DNA of 64,000 bases, taken from contig NC_092680.1 in assembly GCF_964355755.1 (NCBI RefSeq), positions 21,027,045 to 21,091,044 on the forward strand, written 5' to 3'. The DNA comes from Antedon mediterranea (lineage: Eukaryota; Animalia; Echinodermata). The translations under genes and the position numbers were made by a program. Shown in pieces: positions 16,426 through 64,000 of the stretch. Positions within the stretch are counted from its first letter, which is position 1; each line of letters opens with the position of its first letter. Under the pieces are notes generated by a model. That model made no database searches. It was not told the origin of the DNA and was given only the letters and a program-made list of their open reading frames with translations.

Positions 16426-16439
16426 TGATTTGATTTGAT

Positions 16440-20800: not shown

Positions 20801-21109
20801 ATGATGGTAACGCAATATATGTGCATATATGGCAATAATATTTCATAATAATTTAATTTAAGACGATAGCTTGATATAAATAGTAAAACTCAGATGTATT
20901 TTAAATTTTATTCATTTTTTTGTCAATACCCAAAATTTATTTAACAATACATGATTCTTCTATTTACATTTGACGGTACACAACCAAACTGGAGATTAAA
21001 TAACCTATGCTCCATCTTGAAAAAGGTATAGTAGAATAGTAAGGGTAGTTGAAAAAGGTATAGTAGAATAGTAGGGGTAGTTGCGGTGAGATACAATACT
21101 GTGTAGATG

Positions 21110-21710
21110 TAGAAGATTGAGTAGAGATGGGGGCGCTTTAAAACTGAGTAGAGGTGGGCGATGCAAGACTGAGTAGAGGTGGTGCAACGCAAGATTGAGT
21201 AGATGTGGGGGAGATGCAAGATTGAGGGTAGGGCAATGCAAGATTGAGTAGAGGTGGGAAAGATGCAAGATTGAGTAGAGATAGGGCGATGCAAGATTTA
21301 GTAGAGGTGGGGAATATGCAAGATTGAGTAGAGATGGGGGCGTTTTAAAACTGAGTAGAGGTAGGGCGATGCAAGACTGAGTAGAGGTGGTGCAATGCAA
21401 GATTGAGTAGATGTGGGGGAGATGCAAGATTGAGGGTAGGGCAATGCAAGGTTGAGTAGAGGTGGGAAAGATGCAAGATTGAGTAGAGATAGGGCGATGC
21501 AAGATTTAGTAGAGGTGGGGAATATGCAAGATTGAGTAGAGATGGGGACGTTTTAAAACTGAGTAGAGGTAGCGCGATGCAAGATTGAGTAGAGGTGGGG
21601 AAGATGCAAGATTAAGGAGAGGTGGGGAGATGCAAGATTTGAGTAGAGGTGGCCAAATAATATAGAGGTGGAGCAGAGATACAAAATTGTACAAGATTAA
21701 GTAGATGTAT
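21110..21710. repeat. Purine-rich minisatellite, 24-26-bp units (GATGCAAGATTGAGTAGAGGTGGG) with a ~207-bp higher-order period
   Basis: Read directly. ORFs 20941-21694 derive from it. Confidence 0.9.
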
Positions 21711-30800: not shown

Positions 30801-33219
30801 GCGGTGTTATATACTGTAATCCTCAAAAATGACTATTATTAAGCTGTACAATTGGCATTGCCATCATGGATTTCTGAAAAGTAGACATATTAAGCTTTCC
30901 AAAATGTATGATAGCATTTGCCACCAATTTGATACTGCTTTCGCAAAATACTGGACACGGCCCATGGACTAATAAGGAAGGCCTTCAATTAAATTCAAAA
31001 AGTCAAATATCAACCTTATTTACACTTGGTAGTCCAATATATGAAATATCGTAAAAAGATGAATTGAGCCTATTATTGAGATTTTATTGGCTAAGAGGAC
31101 ATGTTATTTGACCTGGATCTACCTGAATTTTGAGACTTAATAGCATTAATGCTTCTGTGCTCACCTTGACCAGAACCTATTCTTCTTTGATTCATATGGT
31201 CTGTATTTTAATTTGTGGTTAGACCAGTGTTTTTTTTATTTTAGTTTACAAATCACAGTGAATTTTTAATTTTCAAATAAAGATAAAAATGTTAATTCAC
31301 ACATTATTTTGGTCTTGAACTACAGTAGTTTGAATCTTTGTTGTAAAGTTCAGTTTACATGCCAGTGTTTTTCTTCATTATAGTTCCTGGTGTATTATTT
31401 ATATATTATTCAGCACCATGGTTACATTGCGGCTAACAGGATACAATACTTTATCATTACAGTACGTTCAATTTGGAGTATATATGGGATAATTTGATTG
31501 ATTGATATTGAAATCCGCCAGAATGGCATAGTTTATATTGTTTTTTCAAAGTTATCTAAATGCACTTGTATTTTCTATGTGGTGTTCTAGGAAATAAACA
31601 CAATTTCACTTTTAAATTAAACATGCAATAAAAATTATAAAATATTATCAATCTTATTCTTAATGTAATAATTCTTTGAAAGATAGCCTAGGCCTAATTA
31701 TTATAATTTAAATGTTTATTTTATACCTAGACCTCTAGTCGATTTGATATCAAACTTGTATTATTATCGCCGTGGCTAAAGATACGGTACCGTATCCTAA
31801 CTTCCGTTTACTAAAGGAACGGTAAAATTGAATCACGTCATAATCAGCAAATGGGGTGCTGGTACGTGTGTGACATCATAGTATAAGGACTTTGGATTTT
31901 TTTCACATCGCGTCTCCAGGCTGCATGGATGTGTGCACTGATGATTCTGTGACTCGGCCTCGGGGCTAGACCTACAGTAGCAATGTAATAACGGCCGGTT
32001 GACAACGTCGATGCTATAGTAATAGCAAGATCATGTGGTTGGTGGAGGTTACATAAACATGCACTCAATCTCAAATATTATTTCATTATACACTACAGCA
32101 GAAATATGTTGATAGCCAAATTAGAAGTAAAGGAATTATAATTAAATGTTGGAAATTGTGTTGCGTCGAGTTCATTCGTCCATAGTTACTATATGAGGGT
32201 TTTATTTTTATTCCAATGGCCTATTTAGGCCTATATTGTTTAATAAACTTTGTTTACAGTGGTGATCACAAACAAAAAGCAAATGCGGATAATAAAGGGG
32301 CCCTCAAATACTATGATTTAGACAATAGGCCTATCCCCAGGTCTGAGTCACAGAACTCAGCGCATACATGCAGCTGGCCCCAACCTGGCAAACAAACTCA
32401 TATACCGAGGCTATAGATTATAGTACATAGTACTAGTAGGTCTCTTTTAAAATGGTCAATTTCTGTATTCTAGAATTAAAATCAACATGTACATGTTTTA
32501 GCCTATCAACAATAACAGACGTAGGCCTAGGCTACATTTAGTTTTGTCACACGACACGGATAATAGCGATAAATGAAGCATAAAGAAAAAATGTTAAGCT
32601 GCCGGTTGATCACTGTTTTTGTGATATGAAAAAAAATCCTAAGTCCTTATACGATGACGTCACACACGTACTACTAACCTAGCACCCCATTCATTGGCTG
32701 ATTTTGACGTAATGCAATTTTACCATACCTTTAGCAAACGGAAGTTAGGATACGGTACCGTATCTTTAGCCACGGCGTATTTATTATTGTAAATCATAAA
32801 GTAAAAATAAACTTTTTTTTCTGTTTGGAAGTATAGGCCTAGGCCCCACAGGGGGCCTAGCCTATAAATTATAAATTATTCATTTTTATAGATAGGCCTA
32901 GGCCTAGAAGAGCCTAGAGGGGCCTAGTTTTAAAGTAGAAAGCTTTCTGAACATATGTTTAATATTACACTTCTATATGGAAAATTAAATATAAACATAT
33001 GGTAAAATTCGCTAAGCCTAGGTTGTACCATACCTTCTTCCGCTTCTTCTTCTTTCCACCGCCTTGATGATCGCCTTTCTTTTCATCAAAGTCAAAGCTA
33101 GGAGGCTGGCTAGACGACTTGAAACCAAACGCAAAAACAAGACCTAAAAGTAGCATAACACTTACAATAGGAATTGAAAAATGGAGTGGAATTACATCAT
33201 TAAACCCTTTCACTTCCAT
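24819..33219 (-). CDS. Lys-rich single-pass membrane protein, metadherin/LYRIC-like (~543 aa). Exons 33219-33034, 29406-29238, 28654-28584, 28083-27613, 26972-26670, 26515-26257, 25437-25321, 24874-24819
   Basis: Eight phase-compatible GT-AG exons. N-terminal TM (IPIVSVMLLLGLVFAFGF) followed by KKKKRKK, an EWSTVSSRK motif, and a C-terminus DSWKDASKPKKKRVRRDL resembling the vertebrate metadherin end. The gene model is solid but the orthology is an inference. Confidence 0.65.
29524..30972. mobile_element. Non-autonomous TIR element (~1.45 kb) containing an internal ~204-bp tandem duplication (30241-30646)
   Basis: tagtccatgggcc ... ggcccatggacta form an inverted pair. The duplicated block starts aagttaaagattaaaaacaaataaacatg. 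Confidence 0.55.
31768..32777. mobile_element. Non-autonomous DNA transposon with long (~130-bp) TIRs in intron 1 of the metadherin-like gene
   Basis: cgccgtggctaaagatacggtaccgtatcctaacttccgttt at the left end with its exact reverse complement at the right end. No internal transposase ORF. Confidence 0.8.
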
Positions 33220-33862: not shown

Positions 33863-34450
33863 ATGGCATATCATTACAATGACAATAGCAGTAGGCCTAG
33901 GCCTAGGCCTAAGAAGCAGACTACTACAGACGATTTGGATGTGGATGAAGACGGTTGCCACCCCGGCCTTATTACTAGCTCTAGTGGCAATATTATTGTA
34001 GATGGTATACCTGTGCATATTGGATCTGGGAATGAAAGAAGAGAATCGAATAATATTTACATAAGTGGTCATCCAAGTAGTGAAATTATTATAAACGGAC
34101 AGCGTATTGTCGTTGCTGGAGGTGGTGGTTTTCCCAGAGCTGATCCACAAATAATTATTGAAGATCGGATACCCGAAAGTGAAAGCATTACGTCATCAGT
34201 GGAATGTGATAATGACGTAACATCGGTTGATGGACGGTTAGAAACGTTTGAAGATTTCCCTTCTGGTTGCCCCATGTCACCTGCTCAACTCGCCCGCGCA
34301 GGTTTCTTTTACACTGGGATAGCAGACATGGTACAATGCTTTATTTGTAATGGAAAAGTGAGAGACTGGGAAATTGGAGATTCAGCGTTTGGTGAACATT
34401 TGAAGTTTTTTCCAAATTGTGAATTTGTGCACAGACAGATGGATGCATAG
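33863..34450 (+). CDS. Single-BIR-domain protein (IAP family, 195 aa, no RING)
   Basis: RLETFEDFP...LARAGFFYTG..D.VQCFIC-x16-H-x6-C is a canonical BIR with the conserved W. Head-to-head with the metadherin-like gene. Confidence 0.85.
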   Translation: MAYHYNDNSSRPRPRPKKQTTTDDLDVDEDGCHPGLITSSSGNIIVDGIPVHIGSGNERRESNNIYISGHPSSEIIINGQRIVVAGGGGFPRADPQIIIEDRIPESESITSSVECDNDVTSVDGRLETFEDFPSGCPMSPAQLARAGFFYTGIADMVQCFICNGKVRDWEIGDSAFGEHLKFFPNCEFVHRQMDA

Positions 34451-36692: not shown

Positions 36693-38351
36693 ATGCATAC
36701 AGCACTTCCCGAGGATGATCTGGAGACAGACTCATTTGTGGACAATTATATAGGCGACATAGACGGTGAATTCACACTTAGGCCTATCCAATCATACCAT
36801 CACTATGATAGAAACAACTCATTGCTGCATCTCTTAAAACAACATAAATATAGGCCTACAGGTATCAACGCTAATTTAAATACTACACCAAAGAAAGAGT
36901 TCAACAAAAGATGGGGTGCCAGTACTGCAGAAGATGAAAGCTTCACAGAGCAAGAATTGGATATGACAGCATTGTCAAATCGGCTTTCTACATATAAGTC
37001 CTTGGATAGAGGTTGTACTCTTGATGTTTCCATTTCACAGCTGGCAAAAGAAGGGATATTTTATAAAGACAACTTGTTTTCATGTTCGTCTTGTAAATAT
37101 ACTATTTACGCAAACAGATATCCTAATGTTTCAGAGTTACATAAAATGGAATCTCCAAATTGTTACTACGTCAAAAAATATCCAAGAAATCCATCAATAT
37201 CATACCAGTCTGAAGTAGTCGCTCCTGTTGGTTCAAGCACCCCACGTGACCAAGAATTGGCAACTTCTAGAAGCGTATTTCAATCATCCGTTTTAAATCT
37301 GGATTTGGAAAGAAATATATGTTCGCCTCAATCTGCAAAAGTGATGGAAAAAAGTTTCGATTTGATGTCTAAAGTTACAGTTGGTCAACAAATGCCTGTC
37401 AGTGCGAGGTATATGTCTTATAAAACTGTTGAAGACGATCTCTCTCTATTGGAAAACAGATTGAGAACCTTTCGTAACTGGCCATATCAAAAACCTGATA
37501 AACAGTCAGTTGCGAGAGCAGGATTCGTCTATAAAGGTGTTGGTGGAAACGTAAAATGTTTTTATTGTGATTTGGTTCTTTTACTGAATCCAAATGACGA
37601 CCCTTTCATTGAACACGCTAGACTGCTGTCATCATGTAGATGGTTTGAAGAAATGAAAGGAGATCGTTTCATCATTGAGTGCAAAACAAGATGTTATATT
37701 AATCAAGGTGAGACAGAATGTGGAATCCGAGATTATAGGACAAATGGAAACTCACAACATCTACCGGAAACAACATTTGAAGAAACACCTAGAGATGAAA
37801 AGGAACAAAAAACCGTATCTAAAATCTCGGGAAGTTTGAGTCCATCTGCATATTCGAAAAAACTGAAATTGGATGCTAATGCAAAGTCTAAAATTAAACT
37901 TGCACAAGAATTTGGTTTTAATGGTGATACCATAATGGCGGTAGTAACAAAACACTTAAAAGATAACAATGGTGTTTTTTCTTTGTCAAACGAAGATATG
38001 ATTGAAAAAGTTATGGATGAAGATGCTGCTAATCAAGAAATTAAGCCGAGTGCCCATACTGAGATACCAGACCTAACAACCCTTACGTTAAATGATACAA
38101 CAACTGAAAGTCTTACATCTGATACACTGAAGACGTCCAATGAGGCATCGCAATCTAAAGATGATGTTGCCAAGGAACTAGAGGATCTTAAGGACCAGCA
38201 CGCGTGTAAAATATGCTTGGACCAATCTGCTAACATACTATTCAGGCCCTGTAATCACCTGGTTACCTGCAATGAATGTTCAAAGAACATCAACATGTGT
38301 CCAGTTTGCCGAGCAGCAATTGAAGACCGGATTAAAATTTATCAAAGTTAA
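36693..38351 (+). CDS. Inhibitor of apoptosis protein, BIR-BIR-UBA-like-RING (552 aa, uninterrupted CDS)
   Basis: BIR1 CSSC-x15-H-x6-C; BIR2 RLRTFRNWP...AGFVY...CFYC-x15-H-x6-C; UBA-like LAQEFGF; terminal RING CKICLD...PCNH..CNEC...CPVCR. Confidence 0.93.
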   Translation: MHTALPEDDLETDSFVDNYIGDIDGEFTLRPIQSYHHYDRNNSLLHLLKQHKYRPTGINANLNTTPKKEFNKRWGASTAEDESFTEQELDMTALSNRLSTYKSLDRGCTLDVSISQLAKEGIFYKDNLFSCSSCKYTIYANRYPNVSELHKMESPNCYYVKKYPRNPSISYQSEVVAPVGSSTPRDQELATSRSVFQSSVLNLDLERNICSPQSAKVMEKSFDLMSKVTVGQQMPVSARYMSYKTVEDDLSLLENRLRTFRNWPYQKPDKQSVARAGFVYKGVGGNVKCFYCDLVLLLNPNDDPFIEHARLLSSCRWFEEMKGDRFIIECKTRCYINQGETECGIRDYRTNGNSQHLPETTFEETPRDEKEQKTVSKISGSLSPSAYSKKLKLDANAKSKIKLAQEFGFNGDTIMAVVTKHLKDNNGVFSLSNEDMIEKVMDEDAANQEIKPSAHTEIPDLTTLTLNDTTTESLTSDTLKTSNEASQSKDDVAKELEDLKDQHACKICLDQSANILFRPCNHLVTCNECSKNINMCPVCRAAIEDRIKIYQS

Positions 38352-40454: not shown

Positions 40455-41580
40455 ATGGCTACAGGAGGACAAGACGAAGTGATTTCATCATCACAGGACC
40501 TAGAAGAAAACGGATTTATTCAAATAAACAATAACTATCAGTGTTTGCATTGTAGGTTTACACTTACAGTTAAAAAAGGAAATATCAATATTAATTTCTT
40601 ACGATCGTTGCATAGTTTCGAATCTCCAAAGTGTGATTTTATTTCAAAAAAGAAAACAACACACATGGAAACGAAAACAATCCTAAGACCTCTTGCCAAA
40701 AATCCGATGTTGCGACTGAAAAAGTCAGTAAAACACGTCCACCTACACCACCTCCAAAACCTCAACATATTGCCGACAAATTCAAATCCAGGATGGAAAA
40801 AAGGTGTGAAGATTCCAGCCAACACTCGAAGCATCCAGTAATGCAGACAACATCTGACTCAAAATCGAATCCAGTATTGCAGACAAGATGCAACACAATT
40901 GGAAATGAACACAATCCTAAAACAGCTGACTCAAAGTCGAATGTTGCGATTGAAAAAGACCGTAATAAAACAGATGCCATGAAAATAAAAGGAACACGTC
41001 AACCAACACCACCTCCAAAACCTCCACATTTCCAAACACTAGAATCCGATATTACAACAACACGTCAAAGTAAATCCGAATATGAGCGACACTGTTATCA
41101 TCAAGTGAAGTTAAATAATATTAATTATGGTGTCGTAAACAATAACATTGCACTTGATAAAAATAGTTATGTTAAAGAAAGGTAGGTCTACAGCAGAATG
41201 CAGGGTATAGACATTCTAAACAAACATGGCTTAAAATGGAAGCAAGGGTAAATGCTCTCTCACAACAATTAGGAAGAATGACATTGGAACTGAACAAAAA
41301 AGACAAAATAATAGAAAATCTTCAAAATGATTTATTGAAGTTAAGACGATCGAGACGCCGTAACGTTAGAGGTAAAACTAGGGACACAAAAAACAAAGAC
41401 AGACCAAGTAAATTACAAAGAAAACAAAGCGTGTTACAGCTCGCTAAGATTAGTAACAAGAAATCGAAGGCTGTAAGAGAAAAGAAGAAATACAGAAGAA
41501 AAGTTGTTATGGCAAAAACAAATGCGTCTGATGAAGTTGATGTACTCAATGATGGGGAAACAGTACTATGGATATCATGA
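40455..41580 (+). pseudogene. Frameshifted, internally deleted BIR-ORF1p paralog
   Basis: MATGGQDEVISSSQDLEENGF...CLHC...LHSFESPKC, then PPPKP repeats, then LQNDLLKLRRSRRRNVR and REKKKYRRKVVMAK, all homologous to 42620-43990 and 45318-46937. Split over three frames by -1 shifts at ~40650 and ~41175. Confidence 0.75.
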
Positions 41581-42619
41581 ATAAACAAAACATCATGCTG
41601 CCTAACTCGGAAAAACCAGCATAACAATTCAAAGTAATGTACAATTCAATTAATCAAATAAACCGTACTGTCGGAATAACTATATTTTTACTAATACTAT
41701 TATTTTTAGTTTAGATTGTCAGACTCTGAAGCATTAGAAATGTAATGATAACAAAACCAGCCTAAAATAAACAACAATTTGGTTTATTCAATTGTTAAAC
41801 AACAATTTAGATTTTTTAAGGGGTGGCGGGAATGATTAATTTAGCATAATATTAGGTTTGATAACAATTGAATTGAACAAATGAATCTTAACATTAATTA
41901 TGAATGAAAATGTTGTTGGTGATGGGGCACTATGTAAATGCAGAACAATCTCTTTCAAGTTTTATGTACAGATCACTCCGTAAACAATAAAACATATTCC
42001 TGGTGTCACTGAGGGTTTCTGTTTAATTTTATTTTGTGTGAACGCTAAAACACAATAGTCGTAGAATACTATAATATTGATATAAGCGTCACGTGATTAT
42101 TCATAGCAAATCAGAGCGTCATAATCGATCACTTAGAACTAACAATAACGATTATTGATCAATATTCTGAAGGTTATTATTGCCACATCACAATACTCTA
42201 TATTACATCACGGTGATAGGTCCAACTTGGTAAGTAGGATTATTTTATTATTAATTCAGTTATATATATATATTCATTCAATATTCATCCCCCACCACCT
42301 ATATATTGTTAATGAAAAATCATTCAACTTAAAAGGCCTATGCTATACGTCCGGCTAGCTTGGGATTTCCAAAATCCGAACGCTTGGGTGAAGTCTAGAC
42401 ATCTCTGTCGTTTGCCAAATCAACGGTATCCAGATGGAAACATCATGTAGATATTTGATAGAAATTCTAGAATACATGCAGTTACCACTTGCCATTGGTC
42501 ACTAACAAATTTGTTTAGCAACGGGTTACACTCAAATGGCGTATGCATGTGGTAGTTTCACAGGACGTATATACAAACTCATTGTCCACTTTTTTTTACA
42601 ACTATAGGCATTAATCAAT

Positions 42620-43990
42620 ATGGCAACATCGGCAGATCTAGGTAAAGAAACAGTGATTTCACCACAGGAACTGGCAAGAATTGGATGTAGTCTCGATCTC
42701 AGAAACAATGAACTTCGATGTTTGCATTGTGATTTTACAGTCAAAAAAAGAAGTTTTCCAATTTATTTAAAGTTGCATAGGCACGGATCTCCAAACTGTG
42801 ATTTCAATATTGGAAACAACACAATTGCAAATGAACAACATCCCAGCACCTCTGACCTAACATTCCATTCCAGGATCTTGCCTAAGGACGAGAAATGTGT
42901 AACACCGCGTATAAACATGGAATCTACAAGTGCACGACCTCACAAATATCCAGTAGGCCTAATTCAGACAACAGCTCAATCAAATAATAACGAAGAATTA
43001 AGTATGAAAAGCACCAAAACAACAGCATTGGAATTGGAAACAGAAGATGACCGGATGGTTAGTTTTTCCGGTTGGCCACACAGAAAACCAAACAAATGGG
43101 AAGTTTCAATGGCAGGATTCTCTTTCCTGGGTGTTGGTGATAGGGTCAAATGTTTTTCATGCGGTTTTACAAAAGATTCATGGAAACCAACTGATGATCC
43201 TTTTTATGAACATGCAAAAACTGGAGAGTGTTCATGGCTTATAGAAAATAAGGAAAGGAGTTTAATTACAACATGTCAACGAAAGTACCAATTAGAGCAG
43301 CAGCAGAATTGTCTTCAAAAAGATATTAATAAAAACACTAACAGTTTGGGCAACAAAATAAACATTTCTGAATTGATGACTGCTAACAAGCTAGATTACA
43401 AAGATAACATAAATGCGGTTAAAAGCAAGGTACAGAATACTGAGTATGAACAGGCTAAACAAACTGATTCATCATTGCTTAAAATTGAGAAGAAAGTAGA
43501 GGCTCTTGCGCCACGAATAGAAATCATGGAACTTGAATTAAAAGAAAAAGATAAAACAATAACAGATCTGCAAAACGATTTACTGAAGTACGAGAGACGA
43601 TCAAGAAGTAGTAACTTGAGATTTGGAGGTGTAATCGAGGACAGAAACGAAAACACACTACATAAATTGCAAGGACTAATACGAAGTGTATTACACCTCG
43701 ACGACATTGAAATTGAGAAGGCGCAGAGAGTTGGTAAAAAGGTATCTGGAAATCCACGACACATTATTGCAACATTTAAGGATATACATCAGATGAATAC
43801 CGTTTTCAGAAAATCAAAATCTTTAAAAAGCGGTAGGTTTCACGTAATGGAAGATTTGGCACCAACAGACATGAGGGAAAAGCAGAGATTAAAAGATGTT
43901 ATGGATAAAGCATATGAGGCTGGATATCACCCTGAATTCCGCCGTGATGGTATACTATACATCAATGGCAAACCATACGATCCCGAGTAA
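42620..43990 (+). CDS. Chimeric BIR-BIR + LINE ORF1p (coiled coil-RRM-CTD; L1TD1/Transposase_22-like) protein, 456 aa
   Basis: Truncated BIR1 CLHC-x15-H-x6-C; BIR2 RMVSFSGWP...AGFSF.G.GD.VKCFSC-x16-H-x5-C; then heptads and the ORF1p motifs RSRSSNLRFGGVIE, IEKAQRVG...PRHIIATF, VMEDL and LYINGKPY. Confidence 0.85.
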   Translation: MATSADLGKETVISPQELARIGCSLDLRNNELRCLHCDFTVKKRSFPIYLKLHRHGSPNCDFNIGNNTIANEQHPSTSDLTFHSRILPKDEKCVTPRINMESTSARPHKYPVGLIQTTAQSNNNEELSMKSTKTTALELETEDDRMVSFSGWPHRKPNKWEVSMAGFSFLGVGDRVKCFSCGFTKDSWKPTDDPFYEHAKTGECSWLIENKERSLITTCQRKYQLEQQQNCLQKDINKNTNSLGNKINISELMTANKLDYKDNINAVKSKVQNTEYEQAKQTDSSLLKIEKKVEALAPRIEIMELELKEKDKTITDLQNDLLKYERRSRSSNLRFGGVIEDRNENTLHKLQGLIRSVLHLDDIEIEKAQRVGKKVSGNPRHIIATFKDIHQMNTVFRKSKSLKSGRFHVMEDLAPTDMREKQRLKDVMDKAYEAGYHPEFRRDGILYINGKPYDPE

Positions 43991-44254
43991 TTACAGCCTG
44001 TCATAACTATACTGTTAATTATTATACTGTTAATTTATTATAGGCCCACTTAGTATACAAATAATTTAGATTTATTATGTAAGCATATCCTTTGTTTTTA
44101 ATGTGAATATGTTTTTTTACAATTTGATTCTCTATTTGACTTTCCTTTAATTAAATGCATAATTCGTGTACCTTTTGGACAACTAGACGTAAACAGATAT
44201 AGGTTTAAATGTTAATACTTCAAATATTGTTGGTAAACTATTCGAACATAAACA

Positions 44255-44410
44255 AACCAGATGAATTCTGTATTAAAGGAAACACAGTTTTAGGTAATGG
44301 AGGATTAAGGACTTGGCACCAGCAGTAGTTAGAGGAACGTAGAAGACACATATTAGGGAGCTTCGATTATAACTGGATGGTATTCGAATTGAGCATGCGC
44401 ATAGGGTTAG
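44255..44410 (+). pseudogene. Scrambled relic of the ORF1p part of the chimeric genes
   Basis: ggatggtattcgaattgagcatgcgcatagggtt matches 46643-46676. gtaatggagga...ttggcaccagcag matches 43844-43869. Confidence 0.6.
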
Positions 44411-45317
44411 GTAGGCTACATTATTTACATTTATAACATTATATTATTTACAAACGCAACGGTAATTAATTGTGTAGTACCGGTGTGCTGGCGCCTTTTC
44501 TATGCATGATTAATACGTTTAAAATGTGTATGAAATCCACATAGGCCTACATTATAAACTTAATCAAGTACGAATGAATGTAACGTTTCCGTCGTATTTA
44601 TACTTTGTACACATGAGAAGCGTATGAACGGCATAACAGTGGTGGTACAAATATCTGATAATATAGACCCCGTATAGACCACTAATAAAACTAAAGGTTT
44701 CTATTCAAATAATCCTTTTGTTCAACAGTAGAAAATGTATTTGAAAAATGAACTCGTCATTCAACAATTTATTATTCAAGCACCGGATGGTTTTGTTGTC
44801 ACGTGTTTAATCGTACCAAATGCACAGGATAGAATATTAAAGGAAGACAATTTGGCGTAACATAGTGTAAATAATTGTCGCATTCTAATAACTGAATAAG
44901 CTACAGAATCTCAGAGATACAAATTGGTAAGTTTGTCATATAATCATTATCAATAACTTTCTATGGATCCTATTACGTCCTCTACGGGTGTTTTTCACTG
45001 AAAATCGATTATAACAAAAATACTATTCACTACAAGAATAGAAAAATGTTTCAATGTAAATTGGAATTTCCAAAATCCAGAGGCTTTATGACGTGTTGAG
45101 ATAGAGAGGCCCTAAATTTCCAAAGTGCATGAGGCATAATCGGAATTTTGCAAAACAACAGCATAAAAATAAAATATTGAAAGTAAATTTTGCATTTAAT
45201 TCTAGTTTCAACCGTCCCGTACACATTCTGAATAGGCCTACAGTACTTGGGTTTGTTCTAGCCTAATATTTGACAGTCAAGAAGAAAATACTTCCAGTTA
45301 CATAAATTGGGTGAAGT

Positions 45318-46937
45318 ATGGCAACATCCGCAGGCACAGTGATTTCACAGCAGGAACTGGCAAAAAATGGATTTACTCAGAGAAACAATGAACTTCATTG
45401 TTTGTATTGTAATTTTACAGTAAAAAAAGGAAAATTTTCAATTTATCGAATGTTGCATAAACACGAATCTCCAGACTGTGGTACACAAAGAGAGAACACA
45501 TTGAGAAATGAACAAACAACAAACACCAAACCAGGTACAATGAAAGTGAAAAAAACAGGTCCACCTATACCTCAGAAACCACAAAGATACAAACAGAATG
45601 TCCAAATTGACCAATCCCATCTCTTGCCTAAGACCGACATCAGTGTAAGGCTGGAAAACAAAAGCGAACGACCTCACTCAAGAAATGTTAGGCCTACAAT
45701 AATAAATACAAATCTTCCAATGTACTCAAAGCTGTATAGACATGAATCGTCTGATGAGAGTGGGAGGGCTATCATTTCAAACGCTAGAGCGAACAAGCTT
45801 ACTGAAAATGTACAAAAACCAAGCACATCCTATTCAAAATCAAATTATGGGACTAAAAAAGAGAGTACCGAAACCATGAATGTGAAACAAACAACTCCAT
45901 GCCCGTCTGCTGTACGTCCAAAACAACGCAAGAGAAACAAACAGAATGTCCAAATAATCCAATCACATCTCATCCCAAGACCGCGTGTTATGCTGGAAAA
46001 TACAAGCGAACGACCTCACAAATATCCAGTTGTAGGCCTAATTCAGACAGCAGCTAAATCAAATAATAACGATGACTTCAGTAAAAACAACGCATCGTAT
46101 GCACAGCGTGTACCTTCCAAAGCATTGGAATTTGAAGATGAACGGATGAGGAGTTTTTTACGTGGGCCACACAGAAAACCATGTCTTATAGAAAATAAGG
46201 AAAGGAGTTTTATTACAACCTGTGAGTTCCAATTGGAGCAGCAGCAGAGCTGTCTTCAAAAAGTGAAGTTAGATATTAACAAAAACAAAAATTGGGGCGA
46301 AAAAAGAAACATTTCTGAATTGATGACTTCTAACAAGCTAGATTACAAAGATAACATAAATGCGGTTAAAAGCAAGGTACAGAATACCGAGTATGAACAG
46401 TCTAAACAAATCGATTCGTCATGGCTTAAAATTGAGAAGAAAGTAGATCTTTCACCACAAATAGAAGACATGGCACTTCAATTGAAAGAAAAAGACCAAG
46501 CAATAACAGATCTGCAAAACGATTTATTGAAGTTAGAGAGACGGTCGAGAAGTCGTAACTTGAGATTTGGAGGTATAGGTGAAGACAGAAACGAAGACAC
46601 ACTAAGTAAATTACAAGGTCTAATACGAAGGGAATTGCGCCTCGATGGTATTAAAATTGACCATGCGCATAGGGTTGGTAAAAAGGTATCTGGAAGTCCA
46701 CGACACATTATTGCAACATTTAAGGACATACGTCAGATGAATACAGTTTTAACGAAAACAAAGGCTTTAAAATGCGACTGGTTTTACGCAAAGGAAGACT
46801 TGGCGCCAGCCGACCTGAGAGAAAAGCAAAAATATAAAAATATTATGGCTAAAGCATATGCGGCTGGACATCACCCTTCATTCCGTGATGGAGTATTATA
46901 CATTGATGGCAAACCCTACTTCGGAGATCTCGAGTAA
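45318..46937 (+). CDS. Second chimeric BIR + LINE ORF1p protein, 539 aa, with BIR2 deleted in frame
   Basis: CLYC-x15-H-x6-C BIR1-like start, an expanded linker, and an intact RSRSRNLRFGGIGE...IDHAHRVG...PRHIIATF...KEDL...LYIDGKPY module. Confidence 0.85.
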   Translation: MATSAGTVISQQELAKNGFTQRNNELHCLYCNFTVKKGKFSIYRMLHKHESPDCGTQRENTLRNEQTTNTKPGTMKVKKTGPPIPQKPQRYKQNVQIDQSHLLPKTDISVRLENKSERPHSRNVRPTIINTNLPMYSKLYRHESSDESGRAIISNARANKLTENVQKPSTSYSKSNYGTKKESTETMNVKQTTPCPSAVRPKQRKRNKQNVQIIQSHLIPRPRVMLENTSERPHKYPVVGLIQTAAKSNNNDDFSKNNASYAQRVPSKALEFEDERMRSFLRGPHRKPCLIENKERSFITTCEFQLEQQQSCLQKVKLDINKNKNWGEKRNISELMTSNKLDYKDNINAVKSKVQNTEYEQSKQIDSSWLKIEKKVDLSPQIEDMALQLKEKDQAITDLQNDLLKLERRSRSRNLRFGGIGEDRNEDTLSKLQGLIRRELRLDGIKIDHAHRVGKKVSGSPRHIIATFKDIRQMNTVLTKTKALKCDWFYAKEDLAPADLREKQKYKNIMAKAYAAGHHPSFRDGVLYIDGKPYFGDLE

Positions 46938-47530
46938 ACGTGGGTACCAAACGAAGATAGCAATTCTATTTTTGAATGTGACCTGATATCTTTATACAAG
47001 GAACATACCTTTTGGATAAGCAGTTTGCCTCACAATTTGTATTTTAACCCGAAAGTTTGGTGGTATCATACATGATTTATCTAATAAGAGATTTATTTCA
47101 AAGATTTGTAGCTGTAAATGTTAATGCTTTTATAAAATAAGAATACACACCAGAATGTCGTTTTAAAGTTGTAAAAACATAGACGAATAGATGAATATCG
47201 AAATAGCAATGCGTCTGTAAGCCTAAATCACTTTTGTTTTATAAGAGTAAGACTATGTTATAAAACAGAACAAGTTGTTCCCAATTTTAAAATCGTGGTA
47301 GAAATTGTACTTTCTTAGGTTGTGGCGGGTTTTTGTTGTTATGGGAACCAAGCTTAACGTAGTTTATTATTGGCAATGATGTAAATAAACAACTATTATA
47401 TATTATTTTCATACAATATTTCAAATCAGAAAAAGATAAGAACCAATGTTTAAAATAAATCAGTTTTTCAATTGTAGGAATACATGATAGCATAATATAA
47501 TATAGAAACAAATAACACAAAATAATAATA

Positions 47531-47790
47531 TCAGATAGGTGGTAGTCCCCCTGATACAGGGGCTATTGTGTGAAGCAGTTCACCGGGGTAACCCCCTACT
47601 CTTTTTCGAATAATGAACTGGGTTCTTTAAAGTACACACAGGCTATAACTGCGTACACTGGACCTACGGTTTATAGTCCTTATCCGAGAAGACTTGTTCC
47701 ACCACCAGAACCCTTGCCGATGTTGTTGTTGGCTCTTTAGGTACGGTAAACGGCGCCCCTGCCTTAACCGCTCGGCCATATGACTCGCGA
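47531..47790 (-). mobile_element. Nin/Deu-core tRNA SINE with a long flanking direct repeat
   Basis: Same core as 4838-5121, with A box TGGCCGAGCGG. taatataatatagaaacaaataacacaaaataataata flanks both sides. Confidence 0.75.
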
Positions 47791-49924
47791 TAATATAATA
47801 TAGAAACAAATAACACAAAATAATAATAAATAGATATTACCCATTAACTCCATCATAAAGGTTAAGTATTGTTCTGTCTGTAAGATTATTTTGTTTTTAC
47901 TATTTCATTTTACTTGTATAATCGCTTCTTATTTATTTAAGATTTGAAGTTATTTTTTATATTTTACTTTTTGTTTTATATTGCCTTGTAAATGAACATG
48001 TGCCGTTGATACAAAGCTGTTGTTCAATAAAGAATTAAAAAAATTAATAAAAAAATCGACCATAAAAAACTTCCTTGTGTAATTGAATTAGCTATCTACC
48101 TTTCGTAAAATGATTGCCTGCTACAGTGAGAAACAATATTCATTCTAGATTATAAACGAACAGATCGACCTGTGTGTTATTTAGTTTAGTGAGACATATG
48201 ACAATAGGCCTACATATTTTGAAAAGAAATATCTAAAATACACTTCACAATGCATCAGATTTTATCACTACCTGTATGTTTGAGGACAGACAAAGGAACA
48301 TGATGGTTGGATAAGTTACACAAACACAAGGTTTATGTTAATAAATGTGTGTTATTGAAATAATCAATTGTATTCGCCATTATTTTCTAGTTTACAAAAA
48401 TAGTTGAGTTCAGGTCATAGTTCTGACATAACAAGGAAATAATACCCAGACAATCACAAATTCCCAAACAATCACATGTTTCGAAAGAATATGAATTGAA
48501 AAAAATCCATAGATTTGAAATAGAAATTGAAAACCACTGATAAATGTGCAGTATGATGAAGATATACCAAAATACAACAATATAACTGAAACCATTTTCT
48601 GTTTAATATTATGCCATTTGATTGTAATTTGTTATTCACTTTGACAACAAATTATTGGTTTAAACAAATATTTGCCTGAAAAAACTATAATACAAAGCTA
48701 AAAACAGTCGATCAGAATGTTGGAGTTTAATTGGACATTTTGTCTTTTTATAAGTGAAATAATTAATTAGTTTTTTTCTACAGAAGTGAATAACTTTATT
48801 AAAACTGAAAAATGGCATATTCAATGTCTGATTTTATTAATCATAATTGTTCATATTGTTGTTCGCGACATGCTTCATACATCTTTACTATAACTATATG
48901 GACAAAATTGAATCTGAATTGATGCCTACAGATTTTAAAGTGTTTATCATGTCATCCGCTTGTTTTCAATTCTCGCACAAATTGAACATTCCTGAGCTAT
49001 TTGATTGGTTAGCCATTACCTACATCAACACTTTGCACGAACATATGTGACACTACTAGCTTTAAAAAATCAAAATACATAAGAAAATCTGAAGAGTTTA
49101 AACTGCGATTCATTTTATTGTTAATGTTGTCTTATAATGCAATTACGATTTTAAAATGGTGTGCCGATCAGCTCAGCTACACAATGCTGTTATAGGGTTA
49201 TCAACAAACTTTTAGTTCGCAGGTGCTAAAAACCAGGGACGAGTGAATTCACTTTTCCCTGCTAAAAAACAATAATACCCGCAGAGAAGATCATAAGGTG
49301 TGAATCTATGGTATTGCAACATAAACTAATTTAAATATGATTGTCAACTTAAAGTCCTAATAAAACAAAATATCTAAAAACAATATTAGGTATTATATAG
49401 TATTACTGTGACATTTAATTTATAGAAAATGTTTTAGAATTTCTGATGTTTATAGTGAAGTTTGTGACTGATCATGGAGAATAACTTATTTCTTCATGGA
49501 CTGAAAGAAAAATAATTTATCTAAAACTAATCTACTTTATATATTATTATATTTATACAATACTAACTAAACTAATCAAATCTGTGATTTATTTGAATAT
49601 TTTGCAGTCTTATGACGTCATACGTCTACTCGTAAAATGCCACAAGTGGCAGTCGACTTGCACATGCGCATATCATAAAAATGATGTCATAAGATAGCAA
49701 CCGACAAAGTTGATGTGAAAAAAATAATATTCCCAATTATTTGAATGTGAACAGGCATATTGGTTTTGTTTAGTTTCATTTATCAGGCCAAGAGAATAGA
49801 TTTAAAGAAATCACAAATATGGCACAAAATGGCCCAAAATGTCTGTTTTCAATTATATTACGACCATAAGAACATTCTTGGTTTGTCAGTACATGAATAA
49901 TTAATTTGTGTTAAAAAAACATTT

Positions 49925-59597: not shown

Positions 59598-61906
59598 TTA
59601 TGATTCATCATCGTCATCATCTTCATCATCTCTTGCCATCTGATCATGTTTTGTACCATACATGGTCAACAAATCAACAATAGCATTCATTATCTTCCCT
59701 TCTTTTACGGTATTGCTCCAATTGGTCAACCCCGGACAGGTTATCTTTTTTTCCAACAGTTTGTCTAATTCTTTACGGAGATCCTACGAAAAAAAAACAA
59801 ATTAATCCAAAAGTTTTGATTTTTTATTTTTTAAAAATCATGCATGCAGTAGTACAGTTATCCAACACAATGATCGAAAGCTCTGTCTACACTGGGCACA
59901 TCACACTTTTTTTGTCAAACTAATCTGATAGTGTAGACAGAGCTTACAGCAATGTTCCACAAACTATGAATGTTGTACACAATGAATGAATATTTATGAG
60001 CATTAGGACATTATAAAGTCTTAAGCTCTGTCTACACTATTAAACTAGTTTGAAAAGTGTGATGTGCCCAAATATGGTAGTGAAATGACATCATCATGTC
60101 CATATATGGGCACATCACATTTTTTTGTCACACTAGTTTGATGGTGCGGACAGAGCATAAGTCAATAAACTTATGGAAGTAAGTTTATGGTTTATTTTAC
60201 ATCAACATTTTCATTTTTACACTCGTGCTAAACAGCGCATAGAGACTATTTGTATTTTGCGCTATATAAATTTAAAACCATTAAACCATTAAAACCATTA
60301 AACCATTAAAACCTTTAAACCAATACTGACCTTAACAATAGCTGCAATGCTTTCTTGTGACCTAAAAGTAATTTGATTGTCTACGGATATGATCTCAAGT
60401 CCATCGTCATCAACTCCAACGTGGAGATCACCGCCAAAGAATAGTAAAGGGTACGGCTCTACTATTGTGGTATCGTGTAGGTACACCTTGAAAGAAGTAA
60501 CAAAATTAGTTTTAAATATTATCAAATTCTTTAAAACGGTTTTATTGGAATATGTATTGTTTATGTATCATATTTATTGTTATTAGGAGTGTTCTGTAAG
60601 TGTAAGTGAAATAAACAACCTAAAGAAATAAGGGATTGTAATGTGATATTTTAAGCAAAACAAAGTTTTAAATGGTGGTGTAACGCAGCGAGCAAAGGCC
60701 GCTGATTTAGCACTCCTAAAGGGCCATCCAATGCTGGATTGGGGCTGCTAATGCTCTGGGCCCCTTAAGTTCTGGGGCGTCTACATTTAGCTGGTGAGCA
60801 CTCATAGCCGTTGAAAACAAACATTATTTCTTTCATTTTTATCTTCCTTAGAGGGAATACCATGTACATACAAATGCGTTTGTTGACTTACCCCGGTTGA
60901 TTTCATTTTCAAGTGATACAATAGGTAACTGCTTGCAAAGTTTGTCTCCTTTGAGTTGATGGACTTTGGGTGTATTTCCACTTTGCCATCTTGTTTGGTA
61001 TAGCACTTTACACTAAAAACAGATAATATTGTAGAACTTCTTATTTAGGACAACCGTGTTTTAGCACCATATGCAGTGTAAACCTCAATACAGGGGAAAC
61101 CCCTATTTAACAGACACCCTTGTTAAGAGCACACTTTTTAGTAATACGAATGTTTGTTTTAGCCCTATGGCCAATCCATCCTCAAGGTACTGCATCTCCT
61201 TAATGAGGGTACTACTGTATTAAACTGTTTTACTCTACAAGAAGCATGTTTCAAACAGTACCATAGTAATATTGGCCAGAAAATTGTCCGATTCGATACG
61301 AAAGGTAAACGAAAAACTGACATAAAAAATATGTAGACCCTAAGTCTGATTATTTTAAGAGTAATAATTTTCTATTTCTTACCGAGAAATTTGCTTCTTC
61401 TTTGAGAATCTTGATTTCACTTGCGCAACATTAGGATACAGTCCAGCGCACAGGACGGCCTTTATCAGCTGCTCATTGTCTAATAGAAAAAACAAATATA
61501 CAGATTTACATAGGAAGTAATGAAAAACTACCATAGCTTAATTCTTGATCAAACTTATACACTTTCTGATGTCTTTCTTAACCTTTGTCTACACTATCAA
61601 ACTAGTTTGACAAAAACAGTGTGATGTACCTAAATATGGTAGTGATATGACCAAATATGGTAGTGATATGACCAAATATGGTAGTGATATGACCAAATAT
61701 AGTAGTGATACAAAATCATCATGTCCTTATATTTATTTGTCGCATAAAGTTTGATAGTGTAGACAGAGCTTTATAGACAAGTATTGTGGTTTGCAAAGTG
61801 ATTTACCCGAGTGAATATTAGCCTCATCCTGTTTACAGCTCTTATTAAGTACAAAACCAATGTTACACAACAGCTCACAAAACTGTGTTTTCATGTTATC
61901 CAACAT
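59598..61906 (-). CDS. DHX36: ATP-dependent DEAH helicase DHX36 (RHAU), last five exons: ~61906-61807, 61479-61383, 61013-60892, 60487-60331, 59784-59598. The 5' part lies beyond the window
   Basis: MLDNMKTQFCELL, LIKAVLCAGLYPNVA, DGKVEIHPKSIN, LLYHLKMKST, VYLHDTT.V.PYPLLFFGGD and DLRKELDKLLEKKI follow the DHX36 OB-fold and C-terminus. Confidence 0.88.
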
Positions 61907-62139
61907 CTAAAAGAATAAATATGGATATAGATATAGATATACAGTATATAGAGAGCTTTGAAAACAATTCATATGCAACCATTACAGCAAAATTATTATT
62001 TTTTTTTATTAGAGGCTTAGGGAGTGTAGTAGAAAGAGAGAACCCTAGACCTTGGGATTGGCAAACACCACCACGCTACCAGCTCCACAAAAATGTGCAT
62101 GTTGTATACAGTAGTGTGCTTTTATTTGTATGCTGTATA

Positions 62140-64000
62140 TGTGTGATCTTATTTGTATGTTGTATGAGTTCTTTTATTTGTAAGTTGTATGTGTTCATTT
62201 ATTTGTATACTGTCTGTGTTCATTTAATTGTATGTTGTATGTGTTCATTTATTTGTATGTTGTATGTGTTCATTTATTTGTATGTTGTATGAGTTCATTT
62301 ATTTGTATGTTGTATGTGTTCATTTATTTGTATACTGTCTGTGTTCATTTAATTGTATGTTGTATGAGTTCATTTATTTGTATACTGTATGTGTTCATTT
62401 ATTTGTATGTTGTATGTGTTCATTTATTTGTATACTGTATGTGTTCATTTATTTGTAAGTTGTATGAGTTCATTTATTTGTATACTGTATGTGTTCATTT
62501 ATTTGTATGTTGTATGAGTTCATTTATTTGTATACTGTATGTGTTCATTTATTTGTATGTTGTATGTGTTCATTTATTTGTATGCTGTATGTGTTCATTT
62601 ATTTGTATGTTGTATGAGTTCATTTATTTGTATACTGTATGTGTTCATTTATTTGTATGTTGTATGAGTTCATTTATTTGTATACTGTATGTGTTCATTT
62701 ATTTGTATGTTGTATGAGTTCATTTATTTGTATACTGTATGTGTTCATTTATTTGTATGTTGTATGAGTTCTTTTATTTGTAAGTTGTATGAGTTCTTTT
62801 ATTTGTATGTTGTATGAGTTCTTTTATTTGTAAGTTGTATGTGTTCATTTATTTGTATGTTGTATGTGTTCATTTATTTGTATGTTGTATGTGTTCATTT
62901 ATTTGTATACTGTATGTGTTCATTTATTTGTATGTTGTATGTGTTCATTTATTTGTATGTTGTATGAGTTCTTTTATTTGTATGTTGTATGAGTTCTTTT
63001 ATTTGTAAGTTGTATGTGTTCATTTATTTGTATGTTGTATGTGTTCATTTATTTGTATGTTGTATGAGTTCATTTATTTGTATACTGTATGTGTTCATTT
63101 ATTTGTATGTTGTATGAGTTCATTTATTTGTATGTTGTATGTGTTCATTTATTTGTATGTTGTATGAGTTCATTTATTTGTATACTGTATGTGTTCATTT
63201 ATTTGTATGTTGTATGAGTTCATTTATTTGTATGTTGTATGTGTTCATTTATTTGTATGTTGTATGAGTTCATTTATTTGTATACTGTATGAGTTCATTT
63301 ATTTGTATGTTGTATGTGTTCATTTATTTGTAAGTTGTATGTGTTCATTTATTTGTATGTTGTATGTGTTCATTTATTTGTATGTTGTATGAGTTCATTT
63401 ATTTGTATACTGTATGTGTTCATTTATTTGTATGTTGTATGTGTTCATTTATTTGTATGTTGTATGAGTTCATTTATTTGTATACTGTATGTGTTCATTT
63501 ATTTGTATGTTGTATGTGTTCATTTATTTGTATACTGTATGTGTTCATTTATTTGTATGCTGTATGTGTTCATTTATTTGTAAGTTGTATGAGTTCATTT
63601 ATTTGTATACTGTATGTGTTCATTTATTTGTATGTTGTATGAGTTCATTTATTTGTATACTGTATGTGTTCATTTATTTGTATGTTGTATGAGTTCATTT
63701 ATTTGTATACTGTATGTGTTCATTTATTTGTATGCTGTATGTGTTCATTTATTTGTAAGTTGTATGAGTTCATTTATTTGTATACTGTATGTGTTCATTT
63801 ATTTGTATGTTGTATGTGTTCATTTATTTGTATGCTGTATGTGTTCATTTATTTATATACTGTATGTGTTCATTTATTTGTATGTTGTATGAGTTCCTTT
63901 ATTTGTATACTGTATGTGTTCATTTATTTGTATGTTGTATGTGTTCATTTATTTGTATGTTGTATGTGTTCATTTATTTGTATACTGTATGTGTTCATTT
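62140..64000. repeat. 25-bp tandem satellite (TGTATGTGTTCATTTATTTGTATGT) in a DHX36 intron, running off the window end
   Basis: More than 70 copies. All ORFs from 62228 to 63892 are translations of it. Confidence 0.97.

Follow-up and report, generated by a model that had tools for sequence, protein, structure and literature searches.

Host domains joined to the ORF1p of LINE retrotransposons have been described in vertebrates as the fusion isoforms Lyosin (L1-MYL4), L1-RFX5, NUP42-L1 and USP4-L1 (PMC12129022). In the available part of that study, NUP42-L1 has a dN/dS of 0.41, USP4-L1 shows no purifying selection, and Lyosin, which is without the CTD, is conserved yet has no effect on L1 mobility and is absent from ORF1p foci. 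The mammalian protein L1TD1, which is almost wholly L1-derived, binds L1 RNA and ORF1p and promotes retrotransposition, according to the accessible portion of PMC11925450. Within LINEs themselves, accessory domains are swapped among ORF1s; the kinds named in the sections available of PMC4120745 are PHD, CCHC, esterase and zf/lz, with BIR not among them. In expanded invertebrate IAP families, as far as the available text goes, duplicates that are intronless, tandem and RING-less occur commonly, 29 IAPs are known from the crinoid Anneissia, many of them single-exon, and RT, Pao, Tc1 or Harbinger domains are found in some IAPs (PMC13159474, PMC8917759, PMC7831173). The available part of one survey lists no L1/ORF1 domain among 2,843 IAPs (PMC13159474), and Pfam-type scans miss this ORF1 class.

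In a 64,000-nucleotide stretch of the Antedon mediterranea genome (the window), two open reading frames of 456 and 539 aa, here c1 and c2, would encode proteins that are IAP-like in front and ORF1p behind. Both were picked out by an earlier sequence-only reading as members of a tandem family. That family proves to be an array that also contains a broken copy, c0, and a 41-bp remnant; these two, and a parent-type IAP upstream, were missed by that reading. The features of the locus are as follows.

33863..34450, + strand: single-BIR ORF of 195 aa, with which the IAP cluster begins (Pfam)
36693..38351, + strand: intronless canonical IAP of 552 aa, BIR-BIR-RING (Pfam)
40455..41580, + strand: copy c0, a frameshifted third copy, broken across three frames
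42620..43990, + strand: copy c1, 456 aa, one open frame (ORF list, Pfam, ORF1p profile, AlphaFold2, Foldseek)
42647..42799, + strand: truncated BIR1 of c1, aa ~10-60, zinc ligands C34, C37, H53 and C60
43052..43237, + strand: complete BIR2 of c1, aa 145-206, ligands C178, C181, H198 and C204, spacing x16-H-x5
43322..43345, + strand: fusion junction, c1 aa 235-242, where IAP similarity ends and similarity to the ORF1 protein P0001 starts
43397..43603, + strand: coiled coil of c1, aa ~260-328, predicted parallel trimer
43607..43987, + strand: ORF1p RRM (aa ~330-412) and CTD (aa ~413-456) of c1
44373..44413, + strand: RRM-coding remnant of 41 bp, 88% identical to 46641-46680 of c2
45318..46937, + strand: copy c2, 539 aa, open frame
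within 45318..46937, + strand: truncated BIR1 zinc core of c2, aa 10-54
46263-46928, + strand: complete ORF1p module of c2

From its N-terminus, c1 consists of a truncated BIR1 zinc core, a linker, a complete BIR2 and the coiled coil, RRM and CTD of ORF1p. The linker of c2 has been lengthened through internal duplication. Copy c0 contains the BIR1 zinc core, a repeat linker and a coiled-coil stub (41194-41443); its ORF1 similarity ends where the RRM begins, and a basic tail follows. Spliced host genes lie downstream of the array, which is bordered by the IAP on one side and by TMEM214 on the other. Ahead of the c1 ATG, at a distance of 12 bases, is a sequence resembling a splice acceptor. By eye only, the 36693..38351 IAP has a UBA-like segment ahead of its RING, and one Anneissia IAP in the sources available is similar to it (555 aa, two BIRs and a RING).

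The front half of the fusions is paralogous to this intronless BIR-BIR-RING IAP, which lies ~4 kb upstream and matches c1 aa 4-242 at 27% identity (E 4e-24). At c1 residues 235-242, the IAP's C-terminal half is replaced in frame by ORF1p. An assembly artefact is ruled out because the junction is common to two diverged copies and is bridged in c1 by a DNA contig of sequencing run X3, possibly from the source sample. The fusion is a real chimera, as the sequence-only reading had supposed, and the paralogy to the adjacent IAP, the ORF1p match described below and the shared junction all speak for it.

Like the vertebrate fusions, c1 and c2 join host domains to LINE ORF1p, which is also C-terminal in NUP42-L1 and USP4-L1 in the part available of PMC12129022. 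By contrast, the vertebrate proteins arise through alternative splicing of an intact gene, whereas c1 and c2 are each one open frame in a separate duplicate (PMC12129022, same portion). The Antedon fusions further differ in being invertebrate, in having an IAP partner, in keeping the whole CC-RRM-CTD unit and in their tandem amplification. Like L1TD1, they have a probably domesticated ORF1p without ORF2 and an intact module, predicted in their case to bind RNA. L1TD1, however, is a protein with proven expression and RNA binding; c1 and c2 carry IAP-derived BIR parts. In our leading interpretation, to which we assign a probability of roughly 45%, c1 and c2 are domesticated, RING-less RNA-binding proteins that form a predicted trimer and act as decoys, joining and poisoning LINE ribonucleoprotein particles.

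The C-terminal module of both copies is a complete type II LINE ORF1p, in which one RRM and a CTD come after a coiled coil. A profile built from the module and 149 relatives matches human L1 ORF1p (2ykp) with E 1.1e-24, the RRM alone (2w7a) with E 1.5e-12 and the CTD (2jrb) with E 3.5e-4. The single-sequence fold was poor (pLDDT 57), and an alignment-based AlphaFold2 model was used instead (pLDDT 97); with this model, Foldseek places human ORF1p at every rank from 1 to 11 (best E 1.7e-9, TM 0.81, 2yko). These matches bear out the ORF1p C-terminus that had been read from motifs. The HMMER/Pfam check proposed with it succeeded only in part, finding a BIR in c1 (PF00653) but missing the ORF1p module in both copies, for which the family profile was needed; a single-sequence PDB search with the module reached E 0.076 at best. 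Of the 24 positions that 70% or more of the ORF1p family conserve, copy c1 keeps 23, and its coiled coil has one RhxxhE-type motif in the family register; the coiled coil of c2 is without this motif. The RRM-CTD is net basic in both (24 K+R vs 19 D+E, and 27 vs 17), and these charges and the kept residues are consistent with single-stranded RNA binding. In the tree, a long branch of 1.36 changes per column leads to the module, whose placement beside the stand-alone ORF1 protein P0001 is unsupported (83/50); the nearest known ORF1 is only 50% identical to it. In fold, domain order, conserved residues and predicted trimer, the fusions resemble type II ORF1p of L1 and CR1/L2-lineage LINEs as described in the available part of PMC4120745; they differ from these in having BIRs in place of the N-terminal segment and neither ORF2 nor a 3' tail.

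That difference bears on whether the array is itself mobile. Searches of the window for long frames, and for similarity to the frame downstream of ORF1 at two loci with ORF1 relatives (L002 and L003), found no ORF2-like frame after c1 or c2, and the 700 bp that follow contain no poly-A or short tandem tail (longest A run 4-5). Neither an ORF2 with endonuclease and reverse transcriptase nor a 3' tail is thus found in the window, as had been noted before. At L002 and L003, a second frame common to both (46% identity) lies behind the ORF1 relatives; it resembles an ORF2 start and, by motif, may be an endonuclease, but Pfam and PDB searches with this frame gave no match. One could imagine a LINE family whose ORF1 captured BIRs, since ORF1s swap accessory domains (PMC4120745, in the part available) and a NADAR domain occurs in 5 of 150 ORF1 relatives among the matches listed (of 1377). 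No BIR, however, is carried by any of the same 150, the front half of c1 and c2 matches the adjoining IAP, and spliced host genes follow. Moreover, the contigs that cover c1 and c2 are long and single, with depth 34-59, like those over the IAP, whereas real repeats near the array stack to depths of thousands, although depth is not true copy number and diverged copies dispersed elsewhere in the genome could escape notice. The same idea has a viral form, the remnant of a large DNA virus with an IAP and an ORF1p-like FP25K gene: the ORF1p model resembles baculovirus FP25K (E 1.8e-5), which was also the only lead of an Atlas search (0.75). Identity to FP25K is only 13-17% and 0 of 31 viral-contig candidates were positive; we reject a viral origin. 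Taken as a whole, a mobile unit is very improbable.

The BIR parts have fared unevenly. Both ORFs do begin with a zinc-binding BIR core, as had been claimed, but a complete BIR is present in c1 only (PF00653, E 5e-18, 65.8 bits, aa 145-206). The c2 BIR scores 14.6 bits against the Pfam cut-off of 22.9 because 144 bp (48 codons) of its second BIR have been deleted in frame after 46179, and c0 has no BIR2. By the measure of a complete BIR with CCHC ligands, c1 is a member of the IAP (BIRC) family and c2 is not. All copies retain only the zinc core of BIR1, which in c1 and c2 reads Cx2C-x15-H-x6-C and is without the first BIR helix; its four ligands have survived in 3 of 3 copies, for which the neutral chance is about 0.001. 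Pfam finds no RING in c1 or c2 and does find one in the neighbouring IAP. The groove of c1 BIR2 keeps the W and acidic D/E positions of XIAP BIR3, but T-K-D-S stands where XIAP has G-L-T-D, and a T and a gap take the place of the W-Y pair; in XIAP, these residues have roles in IBM peptide binding.

These observations weigh on the possibility of a signalling device, in which the ORF1p trimer would cluster BIRs, or dock them on LINE particles, for caspases, IAP antagonists, TRAFs or RIP kinases, or in which a RING-less protein would antagonize the neighbouring IAP. The complete BIR2 of c1 with its conserved groove positions, the invariant BIR1 ligands and the predicted trimer speak for such a device. 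Set against them are the loss of BIR2 from c2 and c0, the altered groove, the missing BIR1 helix and RING, and dN/dS values of 0.72 (CI 0.39-1.69) and 1.26 (CI 0.72-2.59) for the BIR-side segments of c1 and c2, where no significant purifying selection was detected in this comparison. We therefore find no support for the caspase/NF-kB coupling, or for the clustering of BIRs in place of RING dimerisation, that the sequence-only reading had suggested, and regard a signalling role as quite unlikely. In the decoy model, the BIR part would be a secondary handle rather than the core function.

By contrast with the BIR side, the ORF1 half has a dN/dS of 0.42 between c1 and c2 (CI 0.27-0.69; 219 codons; Fisher p 2e-4), a moderate value that comes from one paralogue pair with ORFs picked for being open. 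Neutral simulations that used the locally observed substitution spectrum had medians of 0.74-0.76 and fell to 0.42 or below in 5-13 of 1000 runs (p about 0.01), and 0 of 1000 kept either frame open. With adjacent gaps grouped, each of the 12 indel events in the coding sequence has a net length divisible by 3; the flank indels do not. Statistically, the ORF1 half has been under purifying selection since the c1/c2 split. Selection on the ORF1-derived part, as expected of a domesticated host-ORF1p fusion gene, is thus seen in this one pair, and with the absence of ORF2 it upholds the domestication proposed earlier; the suggested paralogue comparison shows constraint on the ORF1 half and no significant constraint on the BIR side. 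The strength of selection is like that of two vertebrate fusions (0.32-0.41 in the part available of PMC12129022).

An alternative is that the chimeric duplicates are now silent or decaying, with the low dN/dS reflecting earlier constraint or gene conversion rather than present function. The c1/c2 flanks are far more diverged than the coding dS of about 0.31 predicts (scores 54-58 vs simulated medians of 149-332), and gene conversion or flank replacement may therefore distort the selection estimates. Decay is visible in the frameshifted and truncated c0, the remnant at 44373 and the BIR2 lost from c2, and has precedents in retroposed clam IAPs, most of them reported untranscribed (PMC7831173), and in USP4-L1 (PMC12129022), in both cases from the portions available. 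Yet neither frame was broken while 12 in-frame indels and a dS of about 0.3 accumulated, the zinc ligands persist in every copy, and gap-free pieces occur in a second organism. Its DNA matches 43411-46370 and 46697-46923 at about 97% identity, with gap positions not readable; 42306-42822 is uncovered and there is little cover to 43339, but holes in cover prove nothing. Contigs of run X5 (RNA type guessed) cover both ORFs at depth 4-15, the spacer 44060-45979 at depth 7 and the two upstream IAP ORFs at depth 94-131; contigs can neither show transcription nor rank genes. On this evidence, we consider present-day decay unlikely.

Because the ORF1 half seems to be kept by selection, c1 and c2 likely encode a host RNA-binding trimer. 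The proposed trimer check gave a score of 0.55, compared with 0.02 for the best of 3 controls; the runs agreed to 77% or more, and pLDDT was 79 or higher. The scale was calibrated with two copies only, and the predictor may be reproducing the solved L1 trimer 2yko; 21 of 30 solved homo-pairs (7 of 16 for animals) and 0 of 23 single chains attained the score mark. In the available part of PMC5940361, human ORF1p reduced to its conserved portion still forms trimers and binds nucleic acid; without the N-terminal part, it cannot support retrotransposition.

For the decoy, we propose the following sequence of events. After a tandem duplication of the IAP, the 5' part of a LINE would have landed in, or recombined with, the duplicate, displacing its RING end at what is now the switch at aa 235-242, and the remainder of the element would have been lost. 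Two or more local duplications of the chimera followed. Constraint, as judged statistically, fell on the ORF1 half and the open frame, and BIR2 was dispensable in 2 of 3 copies. Trimerisation is predicted for the coiled coil, and binding of single-stranded RNA for the basic RRM-CTD cleft. Finally, mixed trimers or RNA coats could bind LINE RNA and fail to support retrotransposition, because a zinc-finger/BIR block replaces ORF1p's own N-terminal segment. Several points count against this scheme. Mixed trimers with the proteins of active elements may be impeded by the long branch and 50% identity. Of the three copies, one is broken already, and c2 lacks the RhxxhE motif. Lyosin and L1TD1, as precedents, do not favour restriction.

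The same selection evidence and the long branch away from known ORF1s would also suit a domesticated RNA-binding protein with a host role apart from LINE control, for example in RNA granules or germline/stem-cell mRNA handling. There, the IAP duplicate would have supplied mainly a promoter, start codon and zinc finger. Lyosin, conserved but inactive on L1, and NUP42-L1, with a dN/dS like that of c1/c2, offer parallels in the available part of PMC12129022, but Lyosin lacks the CTD, whereas c1 and c2 keep the whole CC-RRM-CTD unit. We regard such a role as rather doubtful, and the LINE-particle decoy as the best guess among the proposed roles. A further, improbable reading is a young host defence gene family, in which an IAP would have given up its RING for a capsid-like RNA coat of LINE origin; the trimer would enter LINE particles via ORF1p and the BIR/zinc-finger heads would pass the particle to cell-death or immune signalling.

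The BIR-ORF1 architecture was not recovered elsewhere in the searches made. None of 317 candidates from an ORF1-half search had it, a search that is insensitive because P0001 was also missed; with full c1, the 2 hits among 4374 candidates were ordinary IAPs; and a search of longer proteins (1013-2890 aa only) gave 1 coiled-coil match of 7835. The exact c1 and c2 sequences are not in the protein collection searched. The sequence-only reading knew of no described BIR+ORF1p architecture, and an IAP partner was not found in the literature, but host-ORF1p fusions as such are a described class (PMC12129022).

More broadly, surveys of IAP domains can overlook ORF1p fusions, and since Pfam misses this ORF1 class, more of them may hide among 'BIR-only' invertebrate proteins. 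Few LINE ORF1p domestications have been described, and those in the available portions of PMC12129022 and PMC11925450 are vertebrate; c1 and c2 are invertebrate. Parent gene, junction, duplicates and decay products lie side by side within 13 kb, and the order of events is therefore directly readable. Since c1 and c2 form a natural pair in which one protein has an intact BIR and the other does not, the locus offers a clean test of how domesticated ORF1p proteins act on LINEs: by restricting them, by helping them or not at all. If the defence-family reading were true, Antedon would have a retrotransposon sensor made from the retrotransposon's own protein.

The locus is a real, locally amplified IAP–ORF1p chimera, set in a window of ~33% GC. 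Its copies and neighbors are:

33863-34450: single-BIR ORF, upstream of the fusions
36693-38351: intronless BIR-BIR-RING gene of the IAP (apoptosis-inhibitor) family, upstream of the fusions
40455-41580: broken third copy, c0, over three frames, with ORF1 similarity ending at the start of the RRM
42620-43990: fusion copy c1, a single-frame ORF of 456 aa
44373: RRM remnant of 41 bp
45318-46937: fusion copy c2, a single-frame ORF of 539 aa
55572-57580 and 60298-61044: minus-strand exons from two genes, one TMEM214-like (Pfam: caspase-4 activator) and one with a helicase-type OB-fold

The sequence-only reading placed BIR zinc-binding motifs at the start of both intact ORFs. In c1, Pfam recognizes a BIR at E 5e-18, strongest over aa 145-206, and it leaves c2 below threshold (14.6 bits, aa 10-54). 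Every copy begins just inside the first BIR (BIR1), and thus all keep its zinc core and have lost its first helix. The second BIR (BIR2) is missing from two of the three copies, in c2 through an in-frame 144-bp deletion, and the c2 linker is duplicated. A pyrimidine tract and AG (42590-42619), in frame and open 12 bases 5′ of the c1 ATG, is likely to be the acceptor of a 5′ UTR intron.

A Pfam scan assigned no family to the C-terminal halves of c1 and c2; their identity as ORF1p, as originally proposed, is secure. The last 172 residues of c1 have 1377 relatives at E ≤ 0.001 (median length 265 aa among the best 150), and 18 of the 150 listed match Pfam Transposase_22. A profile of the query plus 149 relatives matches human L1 ORF1p at E 1.1e-24, with RRM and CTD each also matched separately, and a structure model from the profile alignment (pLDDT 97) retrieves human ORF1p chains at Foldseek ranks 1-11 (best E 1.7e-9, TM 0.81). 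In c1, 23 of 24 family-conserved positions are kept, the RhxxhE-type motif has the register of most family members, and the RRM-CTD is net basic. The nearest relatives, where named (4 of 10 clusters), are all crinoid (Antedon or Anneissia), which makes a crinoid host likely. NADAR occurs in 5 of the 150 listed relatives, at the C-terminus in 4 of 17 long proteins scanned (P0080, P0099, P0125 and P0143). The model of 43472-43987 also resembles baculovirus FP25K (E down to 1.8e-5, identity 13-17%) and one viral entry at E 5e-10.

Residues 4-242 of c1 align with aa 103-354 of the neighboring IAP (27% identity, E 4e-24), and similarity to P0001, a stand-alone ORF1 protein, runs from aa 235 to the end (41%). 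These alignments indicate that the IAP C-terminal half, including the RING, was swapped in frame for ORF1p at ~43322-43345; reciprocally, the IAP part stands in for the first ~50 residues of ORF1p. In two of three related metagenome loci, ORF1 is followed by a common second frame (46% identical between loci), for which Pfam and PDB searches gave no match and whose start looks endonuclease-like by its motif. Nothing resembling this frame was found in the window and no tail follows the fusion copies, in agreement with the absence of ORF2 and poly-A reported at the outset. The donor class is therefore probably a LINE ORF1, and the copies themselves are not LINEs; that they constitute a mobile unit is highly improbable. 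The module may have come directly from an active element, or from an ORF1 gene that by then stood alone. In L003, one of the two loci with the common second frame, an RT-like fragment (1254-2321) without a Pfam match, presumably Penelope-type by its motif, breaks the frame following the ORF1 relative.

Across the ORF1 half (219 codons), c1 and c2 differ with dS 0.31, dN 0.13 and dN/dS 0.42 (bootstrap 0.27-0.69), with similar values, at approximate borders, for the coiled coil (0.46), RRM (0.39) and CTD (0.44). Because the simple dN/dS method is biased low, neutral change was simulated with the local substitution spectrum (1000 runs per set), giving medians of 0.74-0.76 and values ≤0.42 in 5, 13 and 11 of 1000 runs. 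No neutral run of 1000 left either frame stop-free, and all 12 coding indel events (adjacent gaps grouped) are net multiples of 3. With a single paralogue pair behind the test, the case for domestication is fair and lies mainly in the ORF1 half; the tandem amplification first proposed, and a signature of the proposed domestication, are supported. On the BIR side, short segments give non-significant ratios for BIR1 (0.72; 0.39-1.69), for the linker plus BIR2 start (1.26; 0.72-2.59) and for comparisons with c0 (0.69 and 0.87). The four BIR1 zinc ligands are retained in all three copies (neutral chance ~0.001; 0.04 for c1 and c2 alone). The BIR side shows decay; decay of the fusions as a whole we regard as unlikely.

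DNA similarity between c1 and c2 ends at the stop codons. The flanks score 54.5 and 58, against shuffle maxima of 67.5 and 50.5, and lie far below the medians of 149-332 predicted by dS 0.31. This shortfall suggests either an older duplication that underwent gene conversion or flanks that have been replaced.

Nine runs contain the stretch; they come from three studies and carry two organism labels, A and B, and none is recorded as RNA. Contigs of organism B span 43411-43771 (5 differences, gap-free), 43753-46370 (70 differences, 57 gap letters) and 46697-46923 (6 differences, gap-free); among the 40 of 488 differences listed, three fall in c1, of which two are synonymous and the third changes K to R. 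As the c1–c2 split (dS 0.31) is ~10x the A–B distance, the array would predate the A–B split. A contig of run X3, possibly the source sample, spans the c1 junction with zero differences. Several contigs cover the c0 linker repeat (40890-41030) at 6-10x local depth in organism B, possibly reflecting repeat expansion or additional family members. In the canonical IAP (36693-38351), 13 of 19 differences in other runs (among the 40 of 488 listed) change an amino acid, many in organism B grouping immediately before and within BIR2, which lacks the groove W kept in c1; this gene possibly evolves fast.

The TMEM214-like and OB-fold genes could serve as synteny anchors. Elsewhere, a hydrophobic exon-like ORF (7932-8252) and a long Gln/Met-rich tandem-repeat ORF (13637-14671), neither with a Pfam family, are probably one spliced membrane-protein gene. 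By eye, long terminal inverted repeats ~1 kb apart (31769-31870 and 32650-32778) form a MITE-like element immediately upstream of the IAP cluster. Downstream of c2, a ~260-bp very high-copy element lies between exact 39-bp direct repeats (47492-47828), and 62093-64000 and 16240-21652 hold a satellite of 25-bp units and several larger tandem arrays.

What might the fusions do? The suggestion that their BIRs couple to caspase/NF-kB signaling fares poorly. The c1 BIR2 retains a W and acidic groove positions; it has T-K-D-S where XIAP has G-L-T-D and no W-Y pair, residues whose groove roles we assume, and BIR2 is lost in two of three copies. BIR-based signaling is accordingly doubtful, and distinctly so. 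Three copies of c1 aa 233-456 are predicted to form a parallel coiled-coil trimer (runs agree by 77% or more, with pLDDT of 79 or higher), with a score of 0.55 against 0.02 for the best control, on a scale calibrated on two copies and with a predictor that may recall 2yko; the mark was reached by 21 of 30 solved pairs, 7 of 16 from animals and 0 of 23 single chains. When its N-terminal part is removed, human ORF1p reportedly still trimerises and binds nucleic acid yet fails to support retrotransposition (PMC5940361). By this precedent, a protein that joins the conserved ORF1p part to a BIR block, where ORF1p has its N-terminus, would make a natural decoy, our best, still tentative reading (probability roughly 0.45). 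A host RNA role not tied to LINEs seems rather unlikely.

Vertebrate host–ORF1p fusions are described as splice isoforms (Lyosin, L1-RFX5, NUP42-L1 and USP4-L1), with dN/dS of 0.32 for L1-RFX5, 0.41 for NUP42-L1 and 0.86 for USP4-L1, and Lyosin is reported to leave L1 mobility unaffected (PMC12129022). L1TD1 reportedly binds ORF1p as well as L1 RNA, and it raises mobility (PMC11925450). Accessory domains are exchanged among LINE ORF1s (PMC4120745), and tandem and retroposed IAPs are reported in oyster and clam (PMC8917759, PMC7831173). Across 2,843 surveyed IAPs, 121 architectures are listed, occasionally with RT, Pao, Tc1 or Harbinger domains, and the text and supplement entries searched name no L1/ORF1 domain (PMC13159474); since Pfam misses the ORF1p module, such absence is weak evidence of uniqueness. 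Our literature searches found no paper combining BIR with ORF1. The IAP–ORF1p chimera extends the described class of host–ORF1p fusions.
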